Shown in pieces: positions 7,437 through 62,004 of a stretch of DNA of 64,000 bases. The DNA comes from a virus. The notes below the pieces were generated by a model that did no database searches, was not told where the DNA came from, and was given only the letters and a program-made list of their open reading frames with translations. Made by a program: the position numbers and the translations under genes. The stretch spans positions 1-64,000 of the IMG/VR virus record IMGVR_UViG_3300042090_002485; one strand, given 5' to 3'. Within the stretch, counting starts at the first letter, position 1. Every line of letters starts with the position of its first letter.

Positions 7437-7765
7437 AGTGGACGCCACCGAAGGCGTCGGCACCGCTCCGCGCGGCGATGCCGCTGGGCGGGTGGACATC
7501 ATGTCTGCCGCGTGCGACGCGGCATCCGCCCAAGGACACGTCGTATGCTGTCGACGTGAAGTTAGAAGACATGCCGACGCAGCTCGACTGCACGTTGGTT
7601 GAAGCGGTCGCCGCCGCACTGCAAACCTCGAAGGGCAAGGCGCGCAAGTTCATCGCTCGCGGCGAGGCGCGGGTGAACGGCGAGGTTGTTCGCGATCCGG
7701 ACGTGCGGGTCAAACGCAGCGACCGCGTCGAGCTGGGCAGGGAGGGTCTCCCCCGCCGGCTGTAG
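7433..7765 (+). CDS. S4 RNA-binding domain protein (may start at ATG 7571)
   Basis: [35 protein letters not shown]. Confidence 0.78.
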
Positions 7766-7997: not shown

Positions 7998-8567
7998 ATG
8001 CAGAAGCACAAGGAATCGCACATGGACCACGGCTTCACCCAGGAGCAGTGGGACTACATCTTCGCGAAGTACTCCGACAAGAAGGAGTTCTTCATCGATA
8101 CGTTCGAGCTGCCCGAGAACCTCGGGACAGTGACAGACGAGCTGTACGGGCCGTCGGCCGGCGACGGGCCCGTTCCTGAGTCTGAGGTGTTCTACGCGCA
8201 CCGCGGCGTGCGGGCGTGGGACTCGCGCCTCGTGCGCTGGCCCAAGAAGCCGACGCGGTTCGTGCGGGTCATCGCGGGGCCGCATAAAGAGCCCTGCGAT
8301 CCCGCGCACCACTGGCCGAAGCAGTGCATCCTGTGCGGGGGCACCGGCGTGCGGGCGTACGCGTGCATCCTCTACACGGCCTACGGCGTCGCGCGGCTCG
8401 ACATGCCCGCCGCGCCGAAGGAGCCGGGCGACATCGTGCACAGCTCGTTCGCGCAACGCATTTCGCAGACCGAGGACTACGTGATGAAGGCCGAGGCTCT
8501 GCGTAAGGCGTTGCGCGAAGCCCAGGCGTTCTGGAGCGTTCATGCCCTCGCCCACGAGGGCTCGTGA
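7998..8567 (+). CDS. hypothetical protein
   Basis: AAGGA ribosome-binding site; typical codon usage; GTGA coupling downstream. Confidence 0.7.
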   Translation: MQKHKESHMDHGFTQEQWDYIFAKYSDKKEFFIDTFELPENLGTVTDELYGPSAGDGPVPESEVFYAHRGVRAWDSRLVRWPKKPTRFVRVIAGPHKEPCDPAHHWPKQCILCGGTGVRAYACILYTAYGVARLDMPAAPKEPGDIVHSSFAQRISQTEDYVMKAEALRKALREAQAFWSVHALAHEGS

Positions 8568-37391: not shown

Positions 37392-38330
37392 TCAGGCGAA
37401 CGGGAAGTCGACGCGCTGCATCGCGAGCGTGTTGCCGATGCCGATACCCGGAGCCGCGTAGCTCCAGAACTCGATGATGTCGGCCTCCTGCTTGATGTAC
37501 AGGGTCGCGTCCTGCAGCAGGAAGAACACGCCGAGGTAGTTCTGCGGCGCGAAGATGTACGCTGAGCGGCGGGTCTCCCCGACCGTGTCATCGACGATGT
37601 CGCGCTTGATCGTCGAGACGACCGGGATGCCCCACAGCTTCTCCTCGGCCTCGATGCCGAGGTCGTAGTGCCGCGACGCCACGTCGTTACCGACGCTGGT
37701 CGCCGGCAGGTCGAGGGCCTCGTAGTACGTCGACTTCGACAGCAGGATCTTGCCGATGGGCTGCTTGCGGTTGACGAGGGCTTGGAAGCCCTGCTTGAAC
37801 CCGCTCGAGTTGAACGCGCCCGCGAGCGTCCGCTGCGTCGACAGCGCCAGCGCGATGATCGCGTTGTTGGTCGCCGTGAACTTGGTGTCCTCCTGGTCGG
37901 CCATGTCCTTGACCGAGTTGTCCGAGAGGATCTTGCGGATGTCGTTCTGGTACGTCATCAGCTCGAACTTGTTCTTGGTGAAGCGCTGGCTCTCGGTCTT
38001 GCCGAAGTAGACCGCGAAGCGCTGACCACGGAACCAGGTCCGCTGCGCCGAGCCGTTGAACGGCACGAAGGTCGCGACGGAGTTGGGCTCCTTCTCGACG
38101 ATCTTCTTCGGCTGGTCCGTGTTCTCGTCACGGTCGATCTCGTCGTCGGCCAGCATGACCGGCTCGATGATCTCGCGTGCGAACGACTCCTGGCGGAGCT
38201 TCTGGCGAATGAAGGCGGTGCCCTCGGCTTCAGCTTCCTTCGTCCGTCCGTCCGTCACCTTGCGGACGAAGTTCGAGTTGATGAACTGGGCCGAGACCTG
38301 TGGCGTCTGGGTCTTGTATGCGGCGGTCAT
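37392..38330 (-). CDS. major capsid protein (HK97 fold)
   Basis: 312 aa; F.R.KLRQESFAREII, E-loop-like region, IRKILSDNSVKDMADQED..F; follows the protease/scaffold genes; very strong codon bias. Confidence 0.82.
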   Translation of the reverse strand: MTAAYKTQTPQVSAQFINSNFVRKVTDGRTKEAEAEGTAFIRQKLRQESFAREIIEPVMLADDEIDRDENTDQPKKIVEKEPNSVATFVPFNGSAQRTWFRGQRFAVYFGKTESQRFTKNKFELMTYQNDIRKILSDNSVKDMADQEDTKFTATNNAIIALALSTQRTLAGAFNSSGFKQGFQALVNRKQPIGKILLSKSTYYEALDLPATSVGNDVASRHYDLGIEAEEKLWGIPVVSTIKRDIVDDTVGETRRSAYIFAPQNYLGVFFLLQDATLYIKQEADIIEFWSYAAPGIGIGNTLAMQRVDFPFA

Positions 38331-50660: not shown

Positions 50661-51101
50661 TTAGAAGAGGCGTCCGACTGCGTGTCCGAGGCCGCGACCT
50701 AGCGCCATCCCGATCGGCGCGACAGCGAGTCCGCCTGCTTGACCGCCGTACATCATGCCCGCGAGACCGCCGATGCCGCCGAGCAGGCGCGCCGCGCGGC
50801 CCTGCTCGGGGTCGCTGTGCATCATGCCGGGAAGCGCAGCCAGCGTGCCGAGGGTGCCGATGCGGCCCAGCGTCTGGCGAACAGGTTGGCCGGGCAGCGT
50901 CGGCCACAGCACCTGGCGCGGGTGCAGCGCGCCGCCCGCGCGGAACGCGGCGGGCCCCTGCACGAACGCCTCCGGTCCCATGCCGACCAGGCCGAGGTTG
51001 CGTGCCGCGCTGATCCCGGTGTCAATGAGGTTGGCCTCCTTGAAGCCGAAGCGCGCGCGGGCTGCTGCCGCGCCCGCTTCGTGTGCACTGGCGATGGTCA
51101 T
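50661..51101 (-). CDS. tagged glycine-zipper protein
   Basis: MTIASAHEAGAAAARARFGFKEAN; C-terminal GxxxG helices. Confidence 0.72.
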   Translation of the reverse strand: MTIASAHEAGAAAARARFGFKEANLIDTGISAARNLGLVGMGPEAFVQGPAAFRAGGALHPRQVLWPTLPGQPVRQTLGRIGTLGTLAALPGMMHSDPEQGRAARLLGGIGGLAGMMYGGQAGGLAVAPIGMALGRGLGHAVGRLF

Positions 51102-52879
51102 CAGTAGCCTCCGTCCTGGCCGAGACCGAACTCGGCACCCGCGACGTACGCCGGCACCGGCGAGGCGCCGTGCAGGTTCGACACGTCGCCGCGGTGGATG
51201 CCCGCGAGCAGAGACTCCTTGAGGTAGCGGTGCGCCAGGCGCGCCATCCAGTCGGGGTTCAGCAGCGGCGTGCGCGACGCGGCGCGCATGACGGGCACCG
51301 CGCGGGGCCCGGTCGTCGCGATCGGCACTGACGTCACGCCGTGGCGCGTGAGCTGCTCGACCATCGGCGGCGTGATCATCGTGCCCGCGGTGTGGTGAAG
51401 CACGGTGTCGGCCAGGGTCTCGCCGACCGCGTCAGCCGTCGGTACGCGGCGCTTGTCGGCGGCGAGCGCGGCGTGGAAGCGGTTGTAGTCGATGACGTCG
51501 CCCTTGAGGAACGCGTCGTCTGGTCCGGGGTCGACGACCTGGACGTAGTTGAGCACGCTCTTCGCGAGCGTCTCGAGGTGGCGCTTGTCGACCTCGGAGC
51601 CTGAACGCTTGTAGACGTCGGCGAGCGCGTCGACGAGGTAGCGCCGGCCCTCGCCGAGGCCCTTGTGCTCGACGACCTCGTCGGGCTTGGGCACGCCGTC
51701 AGAGAGCTGGTCGCCGGCGTAGACCGACTGGCCCGGCGCGACGAGGACACGGTGCTCGGGCGCCACGTAGTGTCGGGTGTCCCCGACGGTGACGTAGTGC
51801 CCGCCCTGTGGCGCGGCCTCGATGCCCTTGACCTCGCCATCGAGCCCGGCGAGCACTGCTTTGTGGGCGAACGACGACGGCACCTCGAGCAGCGAGCGCA
51901 CGCCCTTGATGCCCTCGAGTTTTTTCTCGTCGTCAGCGCGCGCGACGCGGCCGCCGTGCTTGGCGTTGAGGCTGAACTGCGTGAGCGGCTCGCTCAGCGC
52001 CTGCGCCGCGCGCACGCCGACGTTGGTGCCGATCGGGTGCAGACCACCCGCGGGCGCGAGACCCTGGCACTTCTGGCAGACGCCATGTGGCGCCTCGCAC
52101 GTCATTGGCGAGCGCACGGTGACGGTCTTGCCCTCGCGCGTCAGCTCCGACGCCAGTGCCGGCGTGACCAGGCGCCCGTCGGTGAGGTAGCGGTCGATGA
52201 CGTGCGGGTCCGACCCGAGCATCGCGATGCCGTTCTTGGTGCCGCAGTCTGGCGTCGTGATGAGCTGGTCGCCCATGTTGTTGACGAGGATCTTGGCGAG
52301 GTCGCCTGGCTCGACGACGGAGATGTTTGAGAGCACCGCGTTCACGCGCGCCTCGCCGCCGGCGACCCACGCATCGGCGGGCTTGAGCCCCTCGGAGAAG
52401 CTCCGGTCGATGAGCCACGGTACGACCTTGCCCTTCGAGTCGCGCACCATCACCGGCGCGCCGACCGCGCGCATCAGCTGCGCGGCGTTGCCGCGGCCGC
52501 CGGAGCGGACCATGTCGCCCATCGTGCCCGGGTGCTTCTTGGCGACGCCGAGCATCGCGTCGAAGCCCGCGGCGAGCGCCTTCTCCTTCTCGGCCGCGGT
52601 GCCGGCGCGGCGGAACGCGGCTGCGTGCGGGCCGAGCGCGGCGTCGCGCTCCTCGCGCTTGGGCGCGATGTCGTCCAGCCCGACCGAAATGCCGTCGAGC
52701 GTCGCGACCTCGTCGCCGACGCGCTTGAGCTTGGTGACAGCGTCGGGGTAGCCGCGCGGATCCTCCTTGGCGAGGCCGACGAGCAGCTCGTTGAGCGAGC
52801 CCTTCGTCAGCTCGCCGCGTCCGCGCCACTTCGGCGGCAGCGCGGAATCTACGAGGTGGCGACCGAGCGTGGTGGGCAC
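51101..52879 (-). CDS. rpoC: RNA polymerase beta-prime subunit, C-terminal half
   Basis: TTLGR, SVGLDD, MVRSGGRG, SFSEGL (bridge-helix region), DCGT..VRSPMTC...VCQKCQG Zn site, trigger loop AAQALSEPLTQ...HGG. Confidence 0.93.
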   Translation of the reverse strand: MPTTLGRHLVDSALPPKWRGRGELTKGSLNELLVGLAKEDPRGYPDAVTKLKRVGDEVATLDGISVGLDDIAPKREERDAALGPHAAAFRRAGTAAEKEKALAAGFDAMLGVAKKHPGTMGDMVRSGGRGNAAQLMRAVGAPVMVRDSKGKVVPWLIDRSFSEGLKPADAWVAGGEARVNAVLSNISVVEPGDLAKILVNNMGDQLITTPDCGTKNGIAMLGSDPHVIDRYLTDGRLVTPALASELTREGKTVTVRSPMTCEAPHGVCQKCQGLAPAGGLHPIGTNVGVRAAQALSEPLTQFSLNAKHGGRVARADDEKKLEGIKGVRSLLEVPSSFAHKAVLAGLDGEVKGIEAAPQGGHYVTVGDTRHYVAPEHRVLVAPGQSVYAGDQLSDGVPKPDEVVEHKGLGEGRRYLVDALADVYKRSGSEVDKRHLETLAKSVLNYVQVVDPGPDDAFLKGDVIDYNRFHAALAADKRRVPTADAVGETLADTVLHHTAGTMITPPMVEQLTRHGVTSVPIATTGPRAVPVMRAASRTPLLNPDWMARLAHRYLKESLLAGIHRGDVSNLHGASPVPAYVAGAEFGLGQDGGY

Positions 52880-52880
52880 G

Positions 52881-53273
52881 TCACATCCCGGGGTAGCCGC
52901 TGCCGCCGCCCATCATCATCTGTTGCTGACGGGCCTGTTGCTCGCGCTTTGCCTGGTTGTGCCGATGGAGCATGTAGAGCGCGCCGCCGGCGAGCAGCGA
53001 CGGCGCGAGCGTGCGCATGTTGCCGAGCGCGTTCTGGCGTGCCTCCATGCCGAGCGCGGGCGTTGCTGCGCCGCCGAGACCTTGGCGGAGGTTGCCGTAA
53101 AGGTCCTTCGCAGCGCCCATCTGTCCCTGTCCGAACGCCTTGGCACGGTCCATCAGGCCGGGCCCCGCGGGCGCGGGCGGCGCTGCGGGCGTCGACATGA
53201 ACGCGGGGTCGTTGGCGAGCTTGAAGAAGCGGATGGCGGCATCGCGGCCGCGCGCGGTGGAGTCGTTCAGCAT
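52881..53273 (-). CDS. small tagged protein with a TM segment
   Basis: MLNDSTARGRDAAIRFFKLAN; LLAGGALYML. Confidence 0.7.
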   Translation of the reverse strand: MLNDSTARGRDAAIRFFKLANDPAFMSTPAAPPAPAGPGLMDRAKAFGQGQMGAAKDLYGNLRQGLGGAATPALGMEARQNALGNMRTLAPSLLAGGALYMLHRHNQAKREQQARQQQMMMGGGSGYPGM

Positions 53274-53734
53274 CAGAACACCGTTCCGATTGATGTGGGC
53301 TGGCCCATGTCGCTGAGCCGGTTCGCGGTATCACCTGCCGACAGGTTCGACGGCGCGCCCCACGAGGTGGAGCGGTCGAGCGGGTCGCGCGCAGACAGCT
53401 GGTCGCCGGGTGACAGCGGTGAGTCGAGGCCGCTGAGCGCGGCTGCGAGGTCGTCGGCCGAGCCTAGGCTCGCGCGTTTGGCGTTGCGCTCGTGCTCGGT
53501 CTTGAACGCCTCGTCCCAGCCGTGGAACTCGCGGCGCGGGATCTTCAGGCGGATCTCGGCGGAGGCTTCCTTGAAGCCGAACTGCTCGAGCGCGGCGGCG
53601 GCGCCGAGCACGAACGAGTGCTTGACCTTCTCGGGGAGCTTCTTGTCCTTGGGCGTCGCATCCTCGAACTCCTTGGCCAGTTCGGGGTGGCGGGCGTACA
53701 TGAACCGCCGCTGCGCCTGGGACTTGAAGGGCAC
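53273..53734 (-). CDS. small protein with a basic MPFKSQAQRRFMY N-terminal motif and an internal tag
   Basis: GTG 5 nt after TATAAT; SFVLGAAAALEQFGFKEAS. Confidence 0.72.
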   Translation of the reverse strand: MPFKSQAQRRFMYARHPELAKEFEDATPKDKKLPEKVKHSFVLGAAAALEQFGFKEASAEIRLKIPRREFHGWDEAFKTEHERNAKRASLGSADDLAAALSGLDSPLSPGDQLSARDPLDRSTSWGAPSNLSAGDTANRLSDMGQPTSIGTVF

Positions 53735-53740
53735 GACCAA

Positions 53741-54376
53741 TTATAGGTGCTTGTGCTTGCGCCGTTGTTTCAAGCGCTGGTGCCAGGCGACCTGTCTTCG
53801 ATGTGCCGCTTCTGGGACGCGATGACCGGTGTCTCTCGTCAAGTACTGCGTCGCGCGGTCAGCCCATCCAGGCTGTTCGATATGACTTAGCGCTTGGTTG
53901 CATCCTCCACACAATGCACCACGTATCGCTCGTGTTTGATGGTCGTGGTCGACGTCAGTAGGTTTTTCATTACACAACGCACACGTGCCGTCTTGGCTCG
54001 TGATGATCGCGTCCCAGTGGCGCTGTGATATGCCCTTCGATGTAAAGCGTCCGTGTGCTTGTTTATCAGGTATGCAGGTCTTGCAATACTTCTGGTTTGG
54101 CGACGTTGGTACAAATGGGTCTGAGCATAGTTTGCAATTGCGCGGCGCGTGAACGCGTTTGCGTTCTTGTTCCTTTTCGACGCGTTTCGCTTCTTTCTTG
54201 GAGCGCCTTACGCCTTGGCGTCCTAGAAACGCTGCAATTGCTCCCTTGGGAATCTTGAACGCGCGGCTAAGTGTTAGCGGCGACTCCCCGTTCTTGTACT
54301 CACGCAGAACGCGACGGCCGATTTTGCTCCAGGCGATTTTGGTACCGTCACGCGCCGCGGATCTCGATCGGGTCAT
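53741..54376 (-). mobile_element. free-standing Endonuclease VII-like homing endonuclease gene
   Basis: QDGTCALC...DVDHDH...IRGALCGGCN; visibly AT-richer than flanking DNA. Confidence 0.85.
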
Positions 54377-57300
54377 TCAGCGCGATCTCGCCGCGGTGAT
54401 AAGCCGCCATCGCCTCTTCCTGCGACGCGAAGTGCCGTGTCTTCTCGCGTGATGGCGCGCGGGTCGCGCGGTTAAGGCCCATCAGGCTCTCCATCTCGGG
54501 CGCGACGTTGAGCACGCCCGGCCGTTTGTCGGCGAAGATCATGCTCGACAGCGTCATCTTCTTGGCGTCTTCGACGCCGCCCGGCGTCACAGGCGCGTGG
54601 ATCTGCATCGCGTCGCCGTCGTAGTCGGCGTTGGTACCCTTCTCGGCGAATGGGTTGAGCTTGAGCGTCTTGCCGTCGACGACCTTGGGGTAGGCCGCGA
54701 TGATGTTGAAGCGGTGCAGCGATGGTGCGCGGTTGACCAGCACCGGACGTTCCTTGCTCTCGTTGAGCAGCTCCTGACGCGCGATCGGCGACTTGTCGTC
54801 GACCATCTTCTGCGCGTCAGTTGCGGCGTAGCCCCTGCGTACCAGCCGGCCAACGACGAACCGGCCGTACATTCGCCACAGCACACCCTCGGGAACTCCG
54901 ATTTCATCCATGTTGAGCGTAGGGTCAGGCGCAATCGTAGCACGGCCTGATACGTCTTGCTGTCTGCGCATTAATCTAGATTGGAAAAATCCACTACCTG
55001 GGCGTGTCCCCGTGATCGCCGCGATGTAGCCCTTGGCACCGCGCTTCTCCGCGCCGGGGCTGACCGGCTCGCCGACGCCAAACAGCGCGCCGACGGCGTC
55101 GTAGAGGTGGCGCCGCGGGTCAGCCAGCTCGGACTCGGGCAGCGTCTTCTTCGCCTCGCGCAGTTGGTCGCTGGCGAGGAACGCGTCCTTGTAGAGCAGG
55201 TTCGCGTCGCCGACCTGGAGGCGGCCGTCCTGCAGCGGCAGGATCGGGCGGATGACCGGCGGCGTCACCGGGACCTTCGTCAGGACGTAGGCGTTCGCCG
55301 GCTTGAGGTCGCGGTCCTTGAGTGCCTCGAGGTACTTGATCTGCTTGACGACGCCGTCGAGCGCGGGCCCGCGCGCGCGCCGCGACTCCTCGCGCAGCTC
55401 GGCGAGCTTGGCGTCCACGTCGATGTCGTCGAGCGCGCGCCGGAACCACTCGCCGCCGCGGCCGACACGCTCGGAGAACTCCTTCTGGGTCAGGCCGAGC
55501 AGGCGCCGCACCGGCTCCTCGAACACCGGGTTGACGATCGGCTCGTGCAGATCGACGTGCGACCACTTCGTGCCGGACATGCCGCCGGTGGTCGTCGGGT
55601 CGAACAGGCCGCCGGTCTCGGGGCGCAGGTCCTTGGCGCGAACGAGCTTGCTGGCGTCCTTGAGCGCGCCCGACGACATGCTCTTGATGTCGGCGTCGGT
55701 GAGCGGGCCGAGTGCGAGTCGCGAGCCGCTCTTGTCGACCTTGACGCCGGCCCCGGTGAGCATCGCGAGGAACTTGTCGTAGGCGAACGTGGTCTTGGGG
55801 GCGGGCGTGGGTAGGCCGAGCTGGACCGCGCGCCAGAACTCGTCACTGCGCTGACTCTTCACCGACGCGGCCTCGCGGAGGATGTTGCGGGCGTTGTGCG
55901 CGACCAATCCGTCAAATTCCATGCGGCCTAGCCCCTTGGCGCCGTCGTCGCCGCCGCGTGCTGGCTGCTGGTTGTAGTCGTAGCGCTCGGCGCCGTGCGC
56001 GGCCCAGTTGCTGTCCGTCGTCTTGAAGAGCTTGAGGATGTAGCTCTTGCCGACCACCACGTCGGGGATCTTCTTCCCTGTGATCGGATCGGACACGGTC
56101 TCCTTGTCCGTTAGCCCGTGTTCGGCGAGCAGCTTCTTGGCGTACTCTACATTGTCCCGTCCCGGGACGTACTGCGGTACGACGACGGGCTTGCCCGTCT
56201 TCTCGGCGACCTTGCCGAGCATCGTCTCTACGGTCTGCGCCGGGTTGATGCGCGATACGATGCCGGCCGACGTGAACAACAGGTCGACCGGTCGGCCGTC
56301 CTGGTCGTGGATCATCTGCTCGTCTGGGACGATCTTGGCGATGACCCCCTTGTTGCCGTAGCGGTTGCAGTTGCCGCACCAGGCGGGTTTGCCATTGCGG
56401 CGAACATACAGCACGTGCCCCGGCACGGTGAGGCAGTACACGGGTCGCGCGTAGTCTTCGATGAAGCCCTCTTCTTGCGCGTTCTGCTTCTTGGTGTGCC
56501 CGTGATTGATCTGCGGCTCGAGTTTCGTCGTCACGATGCTGACTTGGTAGAATGGACGCGCGTGGCTCGCCTTGCCCATGATCGTGACGGGGCCTCCCTC
56601 GTGGATCCGATCCACGTTGGCCGCCCAGCCCACGTGCAGGCAGAGGCGCTGGACGTCATCGGCTAGGCGTCGCGACACAGTGAAGTACGCGACGGGGCGC
56701 CCGCACGGCTTCGACGAGCCGTCTCCCCACATCAACCACTGGAACAGGATGCGCAACTGCGCTGGTGGCAGGTCGAAGACGTTGTCGGGGATGTACTTCT
56801 CGTGCGCGAGCCCGAATTGCGAGAAGTACGCGAGCAGTTGCTTGCCGTAGATTCTGATTTTCTCTGGTCCCGGATAGAACGCGATACCGGCGGCGCGCAG
56901 TGCGTCGATCAGCTGTTGTCGGTTGGGCTCGCGCGTCTGCGTGATGTCGATGCCGTACGTTCCGGGTTGGTCGAACGTATTTCCTTCGGAAAGGAATGCA
57001 CCGAGCAGCAGCAGGAACGTGTTCATCGGCATGCGCAGCGGTGGCAGCTCGCGGGTCCCGACACCGCCCTGCCCCGCGCGAACGGACATCGCGGGGAACT
57101 CGAATACGTCGACGTGCGTGCCCTGCCAGTTGCCGTTCTTCTTGAATTGGACGCGCTTGCCTGCAATCGCGTCGGCGCGCAGCAGCTCGAACTGATCGTG
57201 GTCGCGCCGCTTGACGTACATCTGGTGGTTGGCGGTGACTGCGAAGTCGACCTGTTGAGACCGCACCGCGTACATGCGCCCGCCGGTCGGGTAGGAGTGT

Positions 57301-59762
57301 GTGGCTTCTGGATTCGCGTAGGTGATTTGGTCGCCTTGAAGCGTGCAAACTTCGTCCTGTAGCGTCACGGCCGCGATCGGCTTCCACCCGCGACGCGTCA
57401 GAACTTCCGTCGCCTCGTCGAAGCAGAGCTTGTCCCCGATCTGCAGAGCCTCGGTCGTGCGCACCGACGCGGAGGCGCGATGCGGCGTCTTTGCGACGTC
57501 GACGACGTGCCCGGGCTGCTCGTGCGTCCAGCGCTCGACGACCTCCTCGAACGGCTTGACCAGCGACTTGGACAGCTTGCCGAGCAGCGCGGCGTCGCCG
57601 GTGACGCGGTTTGGGCGCACGCCGACGACGATTGGGTCGCCTTGGTGGAGAATCGCGCCGGGCTTCGCGACACCATCCTCGTCGAGGTTGGCGTACTGCG
57701 CGGCGGTGTACTTGTTGCCGAAGTAGGTCCGGTGCTTCTCGCGGCCGATTTCCGTCTCGCCGCTGCGCTCGACGCCGTGCTGGTACATGTGCTCGCTGAC
57801 GAGTTTGTCGGCGGCGCCCTGCGACACGACGATGCCATCGTTGGTGTTGAGGCCGCGGTAGGGCATGTACGCCACGCGCAGGTTGGTGCCGAGCGCGAGC
57901 GCACCGTCCTTGGTGAAGTTCGACTCGGCGAGCGGCTGGTCCTTCTCGACCTTGTCGCCGGCCTTCACCAGCAGCGTGTTGTGCAGCGCGGTCTTGGCCG
58001 CGAGCGGGAAGTCCTTGTCGTAGTGCAGCTTGTCGGGCGCCGCGGACGTCTTCTCGTCGTCGTGGCGGTCCGAGAGGTGGATGTAGTCGTCGTCGATCTT
58101 TGCCACGACGCCGGCGCGCCGCGCGGTCGGCACGACCTGCTTGACCATCTCGTGCTCGACCGAGACGCCGGGCTTCCACGACTCGACCTGCACGAGGGGC
58201 GCCTCGCGGTGGACGAGCGGCAGCGCCTGGCCCTGGTGCTTGCTGGCCATCAGCACGCGGTTGCCCTGGATGCCGTAGATGAGCGGCAGCAGGTTCGACG
58301 TCGGGCCGTAGAGGTCGGCGACGTGCTCGATCTGGTGCGTGACCTCGGACCCCGGGACCCTCTCGACCTTCCCTCGGTTCATCGCGTCGACCAGGCGACT
58401 CGCCTCGACGTTCTCGCCCGGGAACGCGACCACCGCCTTCTCCATGTCGGCGGCCTTGAGGAACGTCGACTTGCCCGTTCGCACGTCGCGGACGGGCGCG
58501 TAGAGGTTGCCCTTCTCGTCGCGGCGCGCGCCGATCGCGGCGCGCAGGTCGACGCCGATGGAGAAGCTCTCCGGTGACCGCGCCGGGTCGAGGATGCCCA
58601 TGTGGGTCGGGTGGACGTCGCGGGCCTCGAGTGGGATGGCGCGCTCCGACGGGATGGCGCCCTCGCCGAGCATCGTCACCTTCGACGCTTGGTCCATCAG
58701 CTCCATCGGGTTGATCTGCATCGGCACTGACGACAGCGACGTGCCGGTGAGCAGGCCGCGCACCGCGCCGGTGAACGGCCCGGCGGGCAGCGCCTTCTTG
58801 ACGTCGCCGCGCGCCGCGTCGAGCTTCCACCCCAGCTTGGTGCGCATCGCGCGGGCGCCGAGCTGGATGCGCTCCTTGACGAAGTCGTCCACCGAGTGGA
58901 GCGTCTTGAACGCGAGCGAGTCGCGGTCGTCGACGTCGGCCGCCGTCCGGTGGACGTCGAGCAGCTTCTTGCTGGCCGCGAGCATCGCGCTGGCCGACGC
59001 CTTGTCGTAGGGGTAGCCCAGCGTCTTGACGCAGACCTCTGGGTCCATGACGGTGTTGTCGAAGTAGTCGCGCAGCACGCGCGCCTTCTCGTCTTGCGTC
59101 GTCGCGGTCTGCTTCGCGGGGTGGACCAGCGTCGAGTACAGCTTGTCGACGTGTTTGTCCGGCGCCTTCCACGCGTCGCGGTTCATCTGTGCGATCTCGG
59201 AGCCCCACGCCGCCGCGATGTCCTGCTGCGGCACGCCGAGCGCGCGCAGCACGGGGTGCAGCGGAATCTTCGACGTGGTGTGTGAGGGCTGCATGTAGAG
59301 CAGGCCCTTCTCCGCGTCCATCGACACGCGGAAGTTCGCGCCGCGGGCGAGGTTGAACGTCGCTTCCAGCTCTTCGTTGCCGCGTCGGCGGACGTACGCG
59401 CCGGGCTTGGTACGCAGCTGGTTGGCGACCGAGTACTCCGTGCCGTCGACGATGAAGGTGTGGCGCGGCGTGAAGTACGGCAGCTGCATCAGCGTGAAGT
59501 CGCGCGCGGAGCTGACGGGCTGGCCCGCAGAGTCCTTGACGACGATGTCGCCACGGATGCGCTCGGACAGCGTGCGGCCCTCGAGCACGGCCGTCTTCTG
59601 CTCGCGCGATGAGAACTCGCGGGGCTCGACGCGGATGTTGGACAGCTCGAGCGTGTGCTTGCCCGCCTTGAGAGGGAACACCTGCGCGAGGGCCTCGGCC
59701 GCCTTCTTGCGGATGGCCTCGCGCCGGGTGGCAGCGTCTTCGATGACCGGGCGCAGGTTCAT
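54348..59762 (-). CDS. rpoBC: RNA polymerase beta fused to the N-terminal half of beta-prime; contains an intein
   Basis: beta: RDVHPTH, NRVLMAS.H..QALPL, LALGTN, GDKL/NRYGNKG, QQPARG, GRME. beta-prime: GGLFD, VPVTPPVIRP, SGRATI, NRAPSLH, NADYDGD (54612-54632). Confidence 0.96.
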   Translation of the reverse strand: MNLRPVIEDAATRREAIRKKAAEALAQVFPLKAGKHTLELSNIRVEPREFSSREQKTAVLEGRTLSERIRGDIVVKDSAGQPVSSARDFTLMQLPYFTPRHTFIVDGTEYSVANQLRTKPGAYVRRRGNEELEATFNLARGANFRVSMDAEKGLLYMQPSHTTSKIPLHPVLRALGVPQQDIAAAWGSEIAQMNRDAWKAPDKHVDKLYSTLVHPAKQTATTQDEKARVLRDYFDNTVMDPEVCVKTLGYPYDKASASAMLAASKKLLDVHRTAADVDDRDSLAFKTLHSVDDFVKERIQLGARAMRTKLGWKLDAARGDVKKALPAGPFTGAVRGLLTGTSLSSVPMQINPMELMDQASKVTMLGEGAIPSERAIPLEARDVHPTHMGILDPARSPESFSIGVDLRAAIGARRDEKGNLYAPVRDVRTGKSTFLKAADMEKAVVAFPGENVEASRLVDAMNRGKVERVPGSEVTHQIEHVADLYGPTSNLLPLIYGIQGNRVLMASKHQGQALPLVHREAPLVQVESWKPGVSVEHEMVKQVVPTARRAGVVAKIDDDYIHLSDRHDDEKTSAAPDKLHYDKDFPLAAKTALHNTLLVKAGDKVEKDQPLAESNFTKDGALALGTNLRVAYMPYRGLNTNDGIVVSQGAADKLVSEHMYQHGVERSGETEIGREKHRTYFGNKYTAAQYANLDEDGVAKPGAILHQGDPIVVGVRPNRVTGDAALLGKLSKSLVKPFEEVVERWTHEQPGHVVDVAKTPHRASASVRTTEALQIGDKLCFDEATEVLTRRGWKPIAAVTLQDEVCTLQGDQITYANPEATHSYPTGGRMYAVRSQQVDFAVTANHQMYVKRRDHDQFELLRADAIAGKRVQFKKNGNWQGTHVDVFEFPAMSVRAGQGGVGTRELPPLRMPMNTFLLLLGAFLSEGNTFDQPGTYGIDITQTREPNRQQLIDALRAAGIAFYPGPEKIRIYGKQLLAYFSQFGLAHEKYIPDNVFDLPPAQLRILFQWLMWGDGSSKPCGRPVAYFTVSRRLADDVQRLCLHVGWAANVDRIHEGGPVTIMGKASHARPFYQVSIVTTKLEPQINHGHTKKQNAQEEGFIEDYARPVYCLTVPGHVLYVRRNGKPAWCGNCNRYGNKGVIAKIVPDEQMIHDQDGRPVDLLFTSAGIVSRINPAQTVETMLGKVAEKTGKPVVVPQYVPGRDNVEYAKKLLAEHGLTDKETVSDPITGKKIPDVVVGKSYILKLFKTTDSNWAAHGAERYDYNQQPARGGDDGAKGLGRMEFDGLVAHNARNILREAASVKSQRSDEFWRAVQLGLPTPAPKTTFAYDKFLAMLTGAGVKVDKSGSRLALGPLTDADIKSMSSGALKDASKLVRAKDLRPETGGLFDPTTTGGMSGTKWSHVDLHEPIVNPVFEEPVRRLLGLTQKEFSERVGRGGEWFRRALDDIDVDAKLAELREESRRARGPALDGVVKQIKYLEALKDRDLKPANAYVLTKVPVTPPVIRPILPLQDGRLQVGDANLLYKDAFLASDQLREAKKTLPESELADPRRHLYDAVGALFGVGEPVSPGAEKRGAKGYIAAITGTRPGSGFFQSRLMRRQQDVSGRATIAPDPTLNMDEIGVPEGVLWRMYGRFVVGRLVRRGYAATDAQKMVDDKSPIARQELLNESKERPVLVNRAPSLHRFNIIAAYPKVVDGKTLKLNPFAEKGTNADYDGDAMQIHAPVTPGGVEDAKKMTLSSMIFADKRPGVLNVAPEMESLMGLNRATRAPSREKTRHFASQEEAMAAYHRGEIALNDPIEIRGA
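56370..57425 (-). mobile_element. 352-aa intein with a LAGLIDADG endonuclease, inserted in the beta GDK-x-GNKG motif
   Basis: GDKL|CFDEATEVLTRRGW...VRRNGKPAWCGN|CNRYGNKG; LLGAFLSEG and LMWGDGS blocks. Confidence 0.93.
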
Positions 59763-59786: not shown

Positions 59787-60158
59787 CTACGGGATCCTTC
59801 GCGGCAGCACGGGCGCTTCAGCATCGCCCGCGTCCTGATCCGGCCTGGCCTGCGGGAGCTGGCGCGGCGTCAGGTAGCAGACCGCTACGATGAAGTCGCC
59901 GTCCTTGGTGAACGTCTTCTCCTCGTAGCGGATGGTCGCTTCGCCGCGCAGCACCTTGTTGAGCACGTCCTCGTACTCCCCGCGGTCACCTGGCAGCCCG
60001 AACAGCTGCACATGCGCGTCGAACTCCAGTTCGGGGCCCATCTTGCGCGGGTTGCCCTCGAACGCGACCCGACCAGGCCCGCCAAACATGCCAGCAACGT
60101 CGCTGGCTCCGCGCTGGGCCTTCGCGATGGACGCTACGAAGTCGTCTTCTTCAGCCAT
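59787..60158 (-). CDS. hypothetical protein
   Basis: Lies between portal and RNAP; typical codon usage. Confidence 0.7.
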   Translation of the reverse strand: MAEEDDFVASIAKAQRGASDVAGMFGGPGRVAFEGNPRKMGPELEFDAHVQLFGLPGDRGEYEDVLNKVLRGEATIRYEEKTFTKDGDFIVAVCYLTPRQLPQARPDQDAGDAEAPVLPRRIP

Positions 60159-60170
60159 CGTTGCATCCTA

Positions 60171-61952
60171 TCAGGCAGTAGCCGGGGGAGCACCGCCGCC
60201 CGATGGGTCTCCACCCTGCCGCATCGCCGTGATGGCGTCGTGGTTCTGGGCGGTGGTCTGCGCTTGGAGCCGTTCCTTGACCACGGCGTACATCACGAGG
60301 TCCTCGCTCTGCAGCGCATGCATCTGCGATTGACGTGAGCCGGGGTCAAGAGCTGCCATCTGCTGGACGATCTGATCGGCCTGCGCGATCACGGCCTGCT
60401 GGTCGTACGACAGGCCCTGCTGCCCCAGCTGCGCCTGCGAGCGCGCCTGCGTGGCCAGCGAATTCTGCCGCTTCATCAGCTCCTGCTGCAGCTCCTGCGC
60501 GGTGCGGGCGTCCTCGAGGGCCTCCTGCTTGCGCCACTTCCGCTCGTCCGCGGGGTCGACCTCGAAGGCCTCGCCGAGCGTCCGCTTGGACAGCCACGGC
60601 CCGGTCGTCGGGTCGGCCATGTTGAGCTGCAGCAGCAGGGCCTTCTGCTGGACGTCGTCGATGAACCGGAAGGGCGCGAGCGAGACCTGGACGGTGCCGC
60701 GACCGAGCTGCTTGGCGGACTTGTCCGTGATCCACTGCAGGAGGTCGTTGAGATCGCCGGTCTGGTGGACGAGCTGGTTCTCGAGCACGCGCAGCTGGAT
60801 GCCGGAGCCCATCGCGGAGAAGCCGCCGTAGATGAACTCCTTGGGCAGGCCCATGGCCGCGATGATGTTGTCCTCCGCAGCCTGGACCTCGCCGAGCGTC
60901 ATCAGTGCGCGCGCCTGGCCGCCGAGGTGCGTGACCTCGGCGGGGACCGGCGACCACATGATGTGGAGAGGGTCGCGGCGCCACTTCTTGACGCTGTCCT
61001 TCATCTGCGCCGACCACTTGGCGAGGTTGATGGTGACCAGCGGGTCGCCGTTGGGCGAGGACTGCTTGGGCGAGATGATGCGGAGCGGGACGATGTAGTC
61101 CAGCGCGATCGCCTCATTCGCCTTGCGCAGCACGGCTGCGTAGAAGAACAGCTTGATCGTCGACGCCAGCGGCGGGAAGCCCCACTGGGCCTCGATGCCA
61201 GCAGGTGCGTCCATACGCATGTGGAAGATCTGGCCCTCGGCGAACTTGAAGATCTTGTCCTCGCGGATGGCCTTCAAGAACTCCATCGGCATCGTGTCGA
61301 TGAGGTGCTTGTTGCCCTTCGCGCAGCGCTCCTTCAGCTCCTTGGGGATGGTGTAGAAGTACTCGCTGTGCCCGGTGATGGGGTTGTAGTCGATATCCAT
61401 CAGCTTCGGGTCCCAGCGGATCACCGAGAGCCGATCCTTGCGCGTGATCTTGCGGTCGACGATGTTCTTTTCGCTCGCGTCGACGCGCGTGCTGCATCCG
61501 CTGCACTCGTAGTTGAACGAGAGCTTCTTGAGCTTGAACTTGTAGTTGACCTGGTGGACGTTGGTTAGCCGCGCACACCGCGGGCACTTGAGGAAGCGCA
61601 CGAATGGCGCGTACATCGAGAAGAACGCATTGCCGTAGACGAACTTGTCGATGGCGGCTCGGATCAATGTCCGCTTCGTCTTCAAGACCTTGTCGTGCAG
61701 GTCCTCGAAGAACTGCTTGAGCGATTCGTTCTGGGTCTCGTAGATCAGGTTCGTGATCGGGTACGTGCAGAACTTCTGCAGCGCCGCGTAGATCTGCGCG
61801 CTGTTGAAGTAGAGGTACTCGCACAGCCGGAAGAGGTCCTTGAGCTTCCGCGGCGCGAACGCCGTGAGGAAATCGAAGAGCGGACTGCCCTGCGAAGCGC
61901 TGTTGTGCGACGCGAGTTCCGCGACGCCGGGGTCGAGCATTCCGTCAGGCAT
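60171..61952 (-). CDS. probable portal protein
   Basis: 593 aa; VYGNAF, IFHMRM...WG.PPL...F....LRKANEAIA..IVPLRII, Q-rich C-terminus; first gene of the morphogenesis block. Confidence 0.68.
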   Translation of the reverse strand: MPDGMLDPGVAELASHNSASQGSPLFDFLTAFAPRKLKDLFRLCEYLYFNSAQIYAALQKFCTYPITNLIYETQNESLKQFFEDLHDKVLKTKRTLIRAAIDKFVYGNAFFSMYAPFVRFLKCPRCARLTNVHQVNYKFKLKKLSFNYECSGCSTRVDASEKNIVDRKITRKDRLSVIRWDPKLMDIDYNPITGHSEYFYTIPKELKERCAKGNKHLIDTMPMEFLKAIREDKIFKFAEGQIFHMRMDAPAGIEAQWGFPPLASTIKLFFYAAVLRKANEAIALDYIVPLRIISPKQSSPNGDPLVTINLAKWSAQMKDSVKKWRRDPLHIMWSPVPAEVTHLGGQARALMTLGEVQAAEDNIIAAMGLPKEFIYGGFSAMGSGIQLRVLENQLVHQTGDLNDLLQWITDKSAKQLGRGTVQVSLAPFRFIDDVQQKALLLQLNMADPTTGPWLSKRTLGEAFEVDPADERKWRKQEALEDARTAQELQQELMKRQNSLATQARSQAQLGQQGLSYDQQAVIAQADQIVQQMAALDPGSRQSQMHALQSEDLVMYAVVKERLQAQTTAQNHDAITAMRQGGDPSGGGAPPATA

Positions 61953-61953
61953 G

Positions 61954-61968
61954 GTTTACCTCGTAAAC
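61954..61968. promoter_or_regulatory. perfect palindrome GTTTAC-CTC-GTAAAC in the portal/helicase divergent gap
   Basis: 1 nt from the portal ATG; same core as 12629 and 18091. Confidence 0.6.
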
Positions 61969-62004
61969 ACGCAGGGCCTCTCCGTGATAGAAAGGCATCG
62001 TCAC

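Follow-up and report, generated by a model that had tools for sequence, protein, structure and literature searches.

A phage RNA polymerase partitioned into a beta::beta-prime-N fusion chain and a separate beta-prime C-terminal chain

We analyzed the multisubunit RNA polymerase (RNAP) genes of a phage known from the 187,862-bp IMG/VR record IMGVR_UViG_3300042090_002485, the first 64 kb of which (64,000 nucleotides, hereafter the window) provide the coordinates and strands given here unless genome positions are indicated. The explanation that best accounts for the data as a whole, and which we hold with good confidence, is that this locus encodes a two-chain, bacterial-type RNAP that is the sole RNAP of a complete 188-kb tailed phage. 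In the first chain the end of beta runs directly into the N-terminal part of beta-prime, and the rest of beta-prime is encoded by a second gene further downstream. This layout is apparently the undescribed hallmark of a large phage polymerase family. The record carries direct terminal repeats and is rated 100% complete in IMG/VR, the GC content of the window is ~67%, and a megablast search with 16 kb of sequence against 50,697 phage records returned zero matches, i.e. no near-identical phage record was found.

Two chains, one junction and one split

The beta::beta-prime-N open reading frame (ORF; chain 1) occupies positions 54348-59762 on the minus strand and stays open throughout its 1804 amino acids (aa), and the beta-prime C part (chain 2; 592 aa) is found on the same strand at 51101-52879, separated from the first gene by 1468 nt. 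Pfam profiles identified Rpb2_3 (aa 349-404), Rpb2_6 (E 5e-40), Rpb1_1 and Rpb1_2 (E 3e-22) in the long ORF and Rpb1_5 (E 2e-17) in the short one. Sequence searches of the PDB matched the long ORF to bacterial beta (E 1e-59) as well as beta-prime (E 5e-47) and the short ORF to beta-prime chains (E 7e-40), and the phage chains are 28-31% identical to bacterial RNAP (E 1e-40 to 1e-60). The motifs QQPARG, GRME and SVKS were located at aa 1265, 1279 and 1300 of the long ORF. The catalytic motif NADYDGD at aa 1711-1717 lies in a beta-prime double-psi barrel recognized by the Rpb1_2 profile, as in the bacterial core enzyme. A chance match is excluded because of the E-values of the hidden Markov model (HMM) searches and because more than 250 homologous proteins share the continuous frame. 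A first-pass annotation of the window had reported the two ORFs with their coordinates and motifs, an uninterrupted reading from the beta N-terminus to NADYDGD, and the resulting partition of the enzyme with both double-psi barrels on one chain. ORF calls, Pfam searches and a motif scan reproduce these assignments, and HMM mapping places the Rpb2 and then the Rpb1 domains in one open frame. Its figure of 1804 codons is correct for the ORF and not for the mature chain, since aa 780-1131 correspond to a predicted intein that had been overlooked. Without the intein and with both chains counted, beta comprises 994 aa and beta-prime 1050 aa.

The beta part consists of two exteins. The N-extein (aa 1-779; 57426..59762, minus strand) was assigned by Rpb2_3, Rpb2_6 and alignment to E. 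coli beta and contains the protrusion/lobe, the fork (Rpb2_3), the flap with its flap-tip helix and the first half of the hybrid-binding domain, terminating in GDKL. Positions 47-228 of the PF00562 profile map to 57423-57986, and the partner in the alignment is E. coli beta 421-889. According to the alignment the flap-tip segment is kept and the lineage-specific inserts of E. coli beta are missing. The C-extein (aa 1132-1346; 55725..56369, minus strand) covers PF00562 positions 228-360 and was aligned with four bacterial beta subunits; it provides the hybrid-binding domain's second half as well as the C-terminal clamp part of beta with the three motifs QQPARG, GRME and SVKS, and ends with ...GAGVKVDKSG at the position of the last E. 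coli beta residue.

Alignment with four bacterial enzymes and with the phage relatives places the transition from beta to beta-prime at aa 1346|1347 (window ~55724/55725), only 5 nt away from the ~55730 of the first-pass annotation. There is no linker: beta-prime sets in directly after the end of beta, at a position matching residue ~18 of E. coli beta-prime, and the residues after the junction, SRLALGPLTDADIKSMSSG, align with E. coli beta-prime IKIALASPDMIRSWSFG. The beta-prime N part (aa 1347-1804; 54351..55724, minus strand, with the stop codon at 54348-54350) was recognized by Rpb1_1, Rpb1_2 and by rpoC and gamma profiles. It aligns to E. coli beta-prime 175-551 and includes the clamp-helices region and the double-psi barrel. 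The zinc-binding domain of beta-prime with its four Cys is replaced by a Cys-free loop of ~13 aa; 12-16 Cys-free residues occupy this place in all 55 phage rows of the alignment, versus 46 residues with four Zn-binding Cys (five Cys counted) in bacteria. An AlphaFold2 model of aa 1132-1804, computed with a 47-row alignment, reached a mean predicted local distance difference test score (pLDDT) of 88.3 and a predicted template modelling score (pTM) of 0.77. The pLDDT values of three 10-residue blocks across the junction were 97, 89 and 96, and strands are predicted at residues 209-214 and 217-222 of the fragment, flanking the junction at 215|216. Foldseek searches with the model returned bacterial beta-prime and cyanobacterial gamma chains as top matches (E about 1e-29).

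As the window stems from a single metagenomic assembly, the continuous beta/beta-prime frame might be an assembly or sequencing artefact in which a stop codon was lost or a frameshift introduced. The chance of this is practically nil: the same frame is present in more than 250 independently assembled proteins, in 58 IMG/VR loci and in isolates (Salmonella phage Arash, Vibrio phage D69), the junction residues are conserved and modelled at pLDDT 89-97, and the peptide coverage of the corresponding Arash protein gp206 is 100% (PMC10585845).

Residues 780-1131 of the long ORF (56370..57425, minus strand; 352 aa) are, as judged from sequence features and allele comparison, a putatively self-splicing intein with a LAGLIDADG homing endonuclease. 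In the alignment with E. coli beta its insertion point falls between the residues equivalent to M1066 and A1067 and hence between the active-site lysines K1065 and K1073. The window reads GDKL-[352 aa]-CNRYGNKG, and intein-less relatives of 85-87% identity read GDKL-SNRFGNKG. Presence and absence vary among alleles that are 80-87% identical, and GDKL-SNRxGNKG is restored exactly where the intein is missing; this is the case in the relatives P0003 (87% identical) and P0004, and P0012, P0022 and P0061 carry an intein at the same site. The splicing residues comprise Cys1 (C780), the block B sequence TANH (843-846; insert positions 64-67), N1131 and Cys+1 (C1132), and two LAGLIDADG motifs with acidic residues are located at 919 (LLGAFLSEG) and 1010 (LMWGDG). 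LAGLIDADG_3 (PF14528) was matched with E 1.4e-5 and 25.7 bits at a cut-off of 22.5 bits, NCBIfam models of intein-bearing DnaB, PolII and GyrA matched solely within the insertion, and the Rpb2_6 profile (PF00562) is broken at the single position 228 on either side of it. The GC content at third codon positions (GC3) is 0.82 in the intein versus 0.88-0.95 in the exteins. The lysine motif GDK...GNKG of the hybrid-binding domain would be intact only once the intein has been spliced out. Because the intein lies between two active-site lysines, splicing should be obligatory, which predicts a mature chain of 1452 aa.

The polymerase gene is a favoured target of inteins, a group I intron and homing endonucleases. 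Of the 272 homologues of P0001, 86 contain large insertions (110-550 aa), which fall at recurrent sites. In window numbering these sites are ~aa 400-420 (25 inserts), 570-600 (29), 779/1132 (23; the site used here) and 1710-1740 (14), the last being just after NADxDGD. Both the second intein site and the acetyltransferase insertion site of the relatives are empty in the window. The inserted acetyltransferase is a GNAT domain (PF00583/PF13508) within the beta part at ~aa 565-570 and was seen in P0019, P0029, P0049, P0080, P0083, P0093 and P0100. In Vibrio phages D181 and D148 the beta::beta-prime-N gene contains a group I intron that carries a homing endonuclease; D69 has the gene without this intron. 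In D181 (L002), two group I introns (RF00028, E about 1e-24) were located at 7437-7717 and 3640-3847, each by a homing endonuclease gene; one of them interrupts the beta::beta-prime-N gene, the pieces of which are annotated in the record as separate hypothetical proteins.

The split in beta-prime corresponds to E. coli beta-prime 569/570, two residues ahead of TTVGR at 572. Chain 1 finishes with ...IEIRGA, and chain 2, which aligns to E. coli beta-prime from 570 onward, opens with (M)PTTLGR (TTLGR at aa 3-7). The residues on the two sides of the cut are adjacent in the homologues, and neither chain carries extra intein-like residues when compared with full-fusion relatives, which read unbroken through the split point (...VNIGGATTTLGR...). 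On gamma (RpoC1) profiles of 619-626 positions, the end of chain 1 falls at position 553-559, ~65 residues upstream of the rpoC1/rpoC2 split. The position of the cut had initially been described as cyanobacteria-like; from the gamma profiles and the E. coli numbering it is near the cyanobacterial site, not at it. Chain 2 contains the bridge helix region, a second Zn site (DCGT and CEAPHGVCQKC, the latter C-x6-C-x2-C), a trigger loop that lacks the SI3 insert, and the C-terminal domain, and it was matched by positions 827-1066 of the 1147-position rpoC profile and by PDB beta-prime chains over aa 123-221 and 232-475. 'Hypothetical proteins' of the Acinetobacter phages Ab1-TPeters (PP763253.1) and vB_AbaM_3098 (PV081573.1), which have genomes of 55-110 kb, match the first 320-450 residues of beta-prime C with 25-29% identity (E about 1e-13) and may be unrecognized RNAP-like proteins.

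The 1468-nt interval between the two RNAP genes is filled by three tightly packed ORFs on the same strand. The one next to chain 1 is an HNH/endonuclease VII-type homing endonuclease gene (53741..54376, minus strand; 211 aa; PF02945 E 2e-14; PHROG endonuclease VII E 4e-22), the start of which overlaps the final 29 nt of the beta::beta-prime-N gene. DNA alignment with the related loci L026 and L028 identifies it as a clean insertion of ~600 bp between the chain-1 stop and the next gene. It is missing in all 58 IMG/VR relatives, a homologue with 36% identity being located at the same place in locus L011, and its GC content of 54.7% and GC3 of 0.57 contrast with 67% and ~0.9 in the neighbouring genes. 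The clean insertion, the absence from relatives and the low GC content point to a recently acquired free-standing homing endonuclease gene. The presence of a homing endonuclease exactly at the split suggests how such splits arise, and the idea that splits follow mobile-element insertion was already raised for phiKZ-type enzymes (PMC7598289).

In view of the group I introns (Vibrio D181) and the many inteins in relatives, and with a homing endonuclease gene lying within the interval, it is conceivable that beta-prime is not truly split and that an intron, a split intein or recoding across the interval yields a single chain. We consider such rejoining very improbable. Rfam finds no intron in the RNAP region of the window, the 1.47-kb interval included, two of the three packed ORFs are conserved, and the chains end and begin at adjacent homologous residues with nothing extra. 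The interval ranges from 567 to 5734 nt across 43 loci. In Arash it comprises nine genes, several of them on the opposite strand, and gp206 and gp216 have separate gene annotations and were detected as two distinct proteins (PMC10585845).

Distribution and history of the fused and split forms

A collection of 5.8 billion proteins was searched to determine how widespread the fusion is. The best 120 clusters at the 90% level (64-87% identity) have Rpb2 and Rpb1 domains in one protein without exception (120/120). Most of these proteins have ~1450 aa, some ~1800 aa (with intein) or ~1580 aa (with the acetyltransferase domain in beta), and the contigs that encode them reach 197 kb. Exhaustive HMMER searching with a 673-aa junction fragment as query retrieved 1585 proteins at E <= 1e-30. 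All of the best 150 representatives at 50% identity cover the junction in one frame; BLAST classified 104 of these 150 as split and 45 as full single-chain fusions. The single-chain fusions are ~2000-2090 aa long, or longer when inteins are present, and two single-chain genes sit on phage-like contigs. A profile-guided scan of IMG/VR yielded 58 loci, in all of which (58/58) beta and beta-prime are fused, with 43 being split (gap of 567-5734 nt) and 15 single-chain.

The split forms make up one clade. In a FastTree phylogeny of 144 junction regions rooted with E. coli, they are united with a support of 97 and the single-chain forms are basal. An IQ-TREE analysis of 59 rows with four bacterial outgroups under LG+C20 with posterior mean site frequencies (PMSF) recovered the phage clade with a support of 100 and the split clade with an approximate likelihood ratio test (SH-aLRT) value of 99. 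In both trees the split clade is nested among single-chain lineages and the window phage is placed inside it. Since beta-prime of the bacterial outgroup is unsplit, the simplest history is one ancestral fusion followed by one split. As reconstructed from these sequences, the split arose once from a single-chain ancestor, at the root of the branch to which this phage and Arash belong.

The opposite order of events was considered as well, i.e. that the split is ancestral: a cyanobacteria-like donor with beta, gamma and beta-prime would have undergone a beta-gamma fusion, and a second fusion would have given rise to the single-chain forms. The split that recurs in jumbo-phage RNAPs after the beta-prime barrel coincides with the cyanobacterial one (PMC7598289), the beta part finds its best single PDB match in a cyanobacterial beta (8gzg_C), and the base of the tree is weakly resolved. 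Still, an ancestral split appears quite unlikely to us. The cut precedes the cyanobacterial one by ~65 residues, the split forms group into one nested clade (support 99 and 97), two fusions are needed versus one fusion and one split, and the PDB E-values for beta subunits from cyanobacteria and from other bacteria differ by no more than a few orders of magnitude, i.e. they reveal no specific affinity. The first-pass annotation had spoken of a fusion combined with a cyanobacteria-like split; an inherited split of this kind is not supported, since the split clade is nested among one-chain relatives that are continuous across the split point. We favour a split that followed the fusion. Like the homing endonuclease present in the interval today, this original split may go back to the traffic of mobile elements through a gene in which inteins and introns are frequent.

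The window architecture had also been proposed to be distinct, and indeed it differs from those of phiKZ/AR9, Helicobacter/Wolbachia and cyanobacteria; it is not special to one genome, being common to a clade that comprises hundreds of phages, cultured ones among them. The existence of many described relatives with the same layout had been named as a finding that would remove the novelty. Many relatives do exist, and their genes are annotated just as 'beta' and 'beta-prime'. No published description of a fused and re-split layout was found in the literature searched, including the Arash, mReC and jumbo-phage papers.

Accessory subunits, gene neighbourhood and virion packaging

Profiles for alpha (PF01000, PF01193) and omega (PF01192), which were matched in 14 of 14 control genomes, had zero matches in the complete genome. 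The profile search found one RNAP set only, and no T7-type polymerase was matched in the genome in a search that had no positive control. A sigma-70-family ORF of 362 aa is encoded on the minus strand at genome positions 67245-68333 (L012:739-1827), 3.2 kb past the window end. The initial statement that alpha, omega and sigma genes are absent accordingly holds for the window, and fails for sigma beyond it. Region 2 is matched once in the sigma ORF and region 4 twice in tandem (aa ~231-281 and ~290-340), a duplication that is uncommon among sigma factors. A second, small ORF with region 4 only was noticed at genome positions 131393-131521. Regarding the docking sites for sigma, the flap tip is kept by alignment, and for the clamp helices it can be stated that their region lies within the aligned stretch. 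The phage sigma may direct the two-chain core.

The RNAP genes are embedded in the head module. A portal-like gene (60171..61952, minus strand; 593 aa) with 29% identity to the Arash portal gp204 (E 1e-84) is located upstream, and a portal gene precedes the RNAP gene in 50 of the 58 related loci, full-fusion forms included. The major capsid protein gene (37392-38330; 40% identity to Arash gp226) is on the same strand as the RNAP genes. The order portal, RNAP, head proteins and major capsid protein on one strand is common to Arash. Among the proteins of cesium chloride (CsCl)-purified Arash virions, gp206 ranked first in detection with 3516 spectra, gp216 was represented by 1210 spectra, and a sigma factor and the gp217 helicase were likewise abundant (PMC10585845). 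The head-module gene order together with the Arash proteomics suggests that the enzyme is made late and packaged for the early genes of the next infection: by analogy with Arash, the polymerase would be produced alongside the head proteins and travel inside the virion, where it would be at hand for transcribing early genes.

Alternatively, the polymerase is an intracellular middle or late enzyme that is not packaged, and it sits in the head module merely for reasons of timing. The Arash authors note that purified particles may be contaminated by abundant enzymes (PMC10585845), an informal reading recognized no packaging signal on either RNAP chain, and there is one RNAP set here, while phiKZ-type phages use separate virion and non-virion enzymes (PMC7598289). 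We rate an unpackaged enzyme as somewhat doubtful, given that gp206 is the top-detected protein of CsCl-purified Arash virions with gp216, sigma and the neighbouring helicase being abundant (PMC10585845), and that the linkage of portal and RNAP genes is kept in 50 of 58 loci.

It is also possible that the two chains are not self-sufficient and form a hybrid polymerase with host alpha2, omega and possibly a host sigma. At 28-31% identity the phage chains resemble bacterial RNAP much more closely than phiKZ-type enzymes do, the flap tip is kept by alignment and the clamp-helix region is inside the aligned stretch, and no phage alpha or omega was found in the genome. Against such a hybrid, which we deem unlikely, speaks that the same chains are kept across hosts as different as Salmonella, Vibrio and a host with 67% GC, that the covalent fusion would remove the main need for an alpha platform, that the phiKZ and AR9 enzymes are active without alpha or omega (PMC7598289), and that the portion of the Arash virion list consulted names phage proteins only (PMC10585845).

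The making of the two-chain enzyme can be pictured as follows. An 1804-aa precursor would be translated, the 352-aa intein would splice itself out, and a 1452-aa chain 1 would result. In this chain the last beta residue is joined without a linker to beta-prime residue ~18, and the chain runs through the barrel with NADYDGD. The 592-aa chain 2 adds beta-prime from TT.GR on, i.e. the bridge helix, the second Zn site and the trigger loop. The covalent link between beta and beta-prime would replace the alpha dimer as assembly platform. Taken to its full extent, this proposal describes a minimal, self-sufficient, sigma-directed machine of ~2,040 residues in two chains, or in one chain in the sister lineages, without alpha, omega and zinc-binding domain and delivered by the virion; in this complete form it is tentative.

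Several observations speak against parts of this proposal. The intein terminates in ...WCGN, i.e. in Gly-Asn with no penultimate His, which bears on the predicted splicing; Gly-Asn termini are known elsewhere, namely from the Ceu ClpP, ThrRS and Pno RPA2 (RNA polymerase I) inteins (PMC1635734). The absence of alpha and omega is based on Pfam profiles, so a divergent alpha/omega analogue may be encoded among the small ORFs, or the alpha and omega of the host may be used. Packaging is extrapolated from one cultured relative with chains that are only 30-38% identical, and the abundant enzymes in Arash particles could be carry-over according to its authors (PMC10585845). The basal full-fusion lineages are weakly supported (86 or unresolved), and the polarity of fusion and split is derived mainly from outgroup parsimony. 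Finally, promoter and terminator scans were no better than shuffled expectation, which concerns the operon structure.

If the proposal is correct, this would be the simplest known sigma-dependent RNA polymerase, and it would be experimentally accessible via the cultured phage Arash. A covalent link between beta and beta-prime would then take over from alpha, the universally conserved assembly platform. To our knowledge, all cellular multisubunit RNAPs join their large subunits on an alpha-like platform, and the only well-studied exceptions we know of come from phages, namely the highly divergent enzymes of the phiKZ/AR9 and crAss types. Here, a large and widespread lineage keeps a bacterial-like, probably sigma-dependent enzyme despite the fusion, the lost zinc-binding domain and the apparent loss of alpha and omega. 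One of its branches has cut beta-prime again at a new place, providing a natural experiment on dispensable subunit boundaries and accessory subunits. Its compactness recommends the enzyme as a candidate for structural studies and synthetic biology, and its gene can mark a phage family whose polymerase chains are currently mislabelled 'beta' and 'beta-prime'.

Further genes surround the polymerase. An SNF2-family helicase (61840..63981, plus strand; 713 aa; SNF2-rel_dom E 3e-21, Helicase_C E 3e-9) is encoded divergently to the adjoining portal-RNAP block and is weakly similar to Arash gp217, which comes after beta-prime C in Arash and is abundant in its virions (PMC10585845); by analogy it is possibly a RapA-like polymerase partner. 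Between portal and RNAP lies a small gene (59787..60158, minus strand; 123 aa) with a conserved core in nine close relatives, and small ORFs occupy its position in Arash (gp205) and Vibrio D181. The 123-aa protein has no match in the ESM Atlas, Pfam or PHROG. It was considered as an omega candidate based on its position and dropped, as it has no family match and nothing ties it to RNAP. More generally, neither the small ORFs surrounding the RNAP genes nor most of the head genes were matched in PHROGs, Pfam or the ESM Atlas. Rfam identified two tRNA genes on the minus strand of the window (5202-5274 and 5297-5378).

Two small genes share the interval with the homing endonuclease gene. The first (53273..53734, minus strand) encodes 153 aa from the GTG at 53734 and is listed with 155 aa from the TTG at 53740; the protein has the N-terminus PFKSQAQRR and the internal motif GAAAALEQFGFKEA, has no Pfam or PHROG match, and is probably head cargo. 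It is kept at the same position in 18 of the 58 loci, all from the closest subclade. The second (52881..53273, minus strand; 130 aa) is Ala/Gly-rich, has no family match in Pfam or PHROG and is conserved in 16 of the 58 loci, again in the closest subclade only. A short motif is common to the otherwise unrelated small proteins flanking beta-prime C, namely GAAAALEQFGFKEA in the 153-aa protein, AGAAAARARFGFKEA in the 130-aa protein and, in a looser form, RDAAIRFFKLA in the product of 50661-51101 (all on the minus strand); in an informal reading it was not recognized on either RNAP chain. A CCTATAAT/CCTATACT element directly upstream of the GTG start of the gene after beta-prime N is shared by three genomes (window ~53735-53750, minus strand; L026 ~8125-8145; L028 ~8120-8140). 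It resembles a -10 hexamer and was not called by a generic promoter scan.

Comparison with known polymerases

The closest described counterparts are cultured phages. Salmonella phage Arash (OQ632216.1; PMC10585845) encodes gp206 (1525 aa) and gp216 (606 aa) with the same two-chain layout, split point and neighbourhood, and the two-chain layout is also that of the Vibrio phages D69, D148 and D181. Together with the window phage, these phages have genomes in the range of 181-188 kb and possess a sigma-family gene, and the Arash and Vibrio chains are 30-38% identical to those of the window. Given the same junction, the same split and the place downstream of the portal gene in the head module, the window phage belongs to this Arash-like clade. 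Arash differs in that it has no intein and in that 4.8 kb with nine genes, several on the opposite strand, separate its two RNAP genes. In the Arash annotation the chains are simply called 'beta' and 'beta-prime', and fusion and split are unmentioned (PMC10585845). The metagenomic single-chain sister enzymes (P0185, 2032 aa; P0200, 2074 aa) are ~40% identical and share the linker-less junction, the loss of the zinc-binding domain, the compactness and the upstream portal gene, but their beta-prime is continuous at the point where, in the window, a stop codon is followed by 1.47 kb of other genes and then by a new start.

The rpoB-rpoC fusions of Helicobacter and Wolbachia (PRK09603, PRK14844) likewise join the C-terminus of beta to the N-terminus of beta-prime, and the Helicobacter-type fused model PRK09603 is the best NCBIfam match of chain 1 (E 6.5e-108), at 361 bits versus a cut-off of 5372 bits. 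Those fusions are complete (~2840-2890 positions), whereas the phage chain 1 does not extend beyond the residue matching E. coli beta-prime 569; the phage fusion is re-split and comes from an independent clade. The fused Helicobacter and Wolbachia enzymes keep alpha, omega and the zinc-binding domain. In cyanobacteria and plastids (rpoC1/rpoC2), beta-prime is likewise cut after the catalytic barrel, and the gamma chains match the model with template modelling (TM) scores by target of 0.57-0.59. In cyanobacteria, however, beta is unfused, and the phage cut lies ~65 residues earlier and is of independent origin according to the trees.

The predicted intein resembles published inteins of second-largest RNAP subunits (RPA2, RPB2, RPC2 and viral RPO; Goodwin et al., 2006, PMC1635734), which likewise are of the LAGLIDADG type and reside in hybrid-binding and fork motifs close to the active site. 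Their hosts are eukaryotic or giant-virus enzymes (PMC1635734), unlike the phage gene that hosts the insertion here.

Similar in another respect are the mReC enzymes (Weinheimer and Aylward, 2020, PMC7481178), which likewise belong to uncultured tailed phages and have compact bacterial-like subunits branching outside the cellular lineages. Their beta subunits start at ~920 aa and their beta-prime subunits have 907-1052 aa (PMC7481178), similar to the 994 and 1050 aa found here. The mReC set consists of separate full-length beta and beta-prime ORFs of at least 800 aa each on Caudovirales contigs, an arrangement that the window does not have. In Supplementary Data 2 of that study beta and beta-prime are listed as separate, unfused and unsplit ORFs, and it is by this table that mReC is set apart here. 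The paper mentions a fusion only for crAssphage, and the contig numbers of three relatives are absent from its supplements (PMC7481178).

Two jumbo-phage reviews (PMC7824862, PMC7598289) and a comparative-genomics paper describe the phiKZ/AR9 type only. These RNAPs are likewise encoded by phages, lack alpha and omega, have a beta-prime that is split after the barrel, and exist in one version that is packaged (PMC7598289; PMC7824862). They consist of four or five chains, with beta divided into two or three of these, have no sigma-70-family factor, come in two paralogous sets and are much more divergent (PMC7598289). The window phage, in contrast, has two chains with beta intact and fused, one RNAP set, a sigma-70-family gene and clear similarity to the bacterial enzyme.

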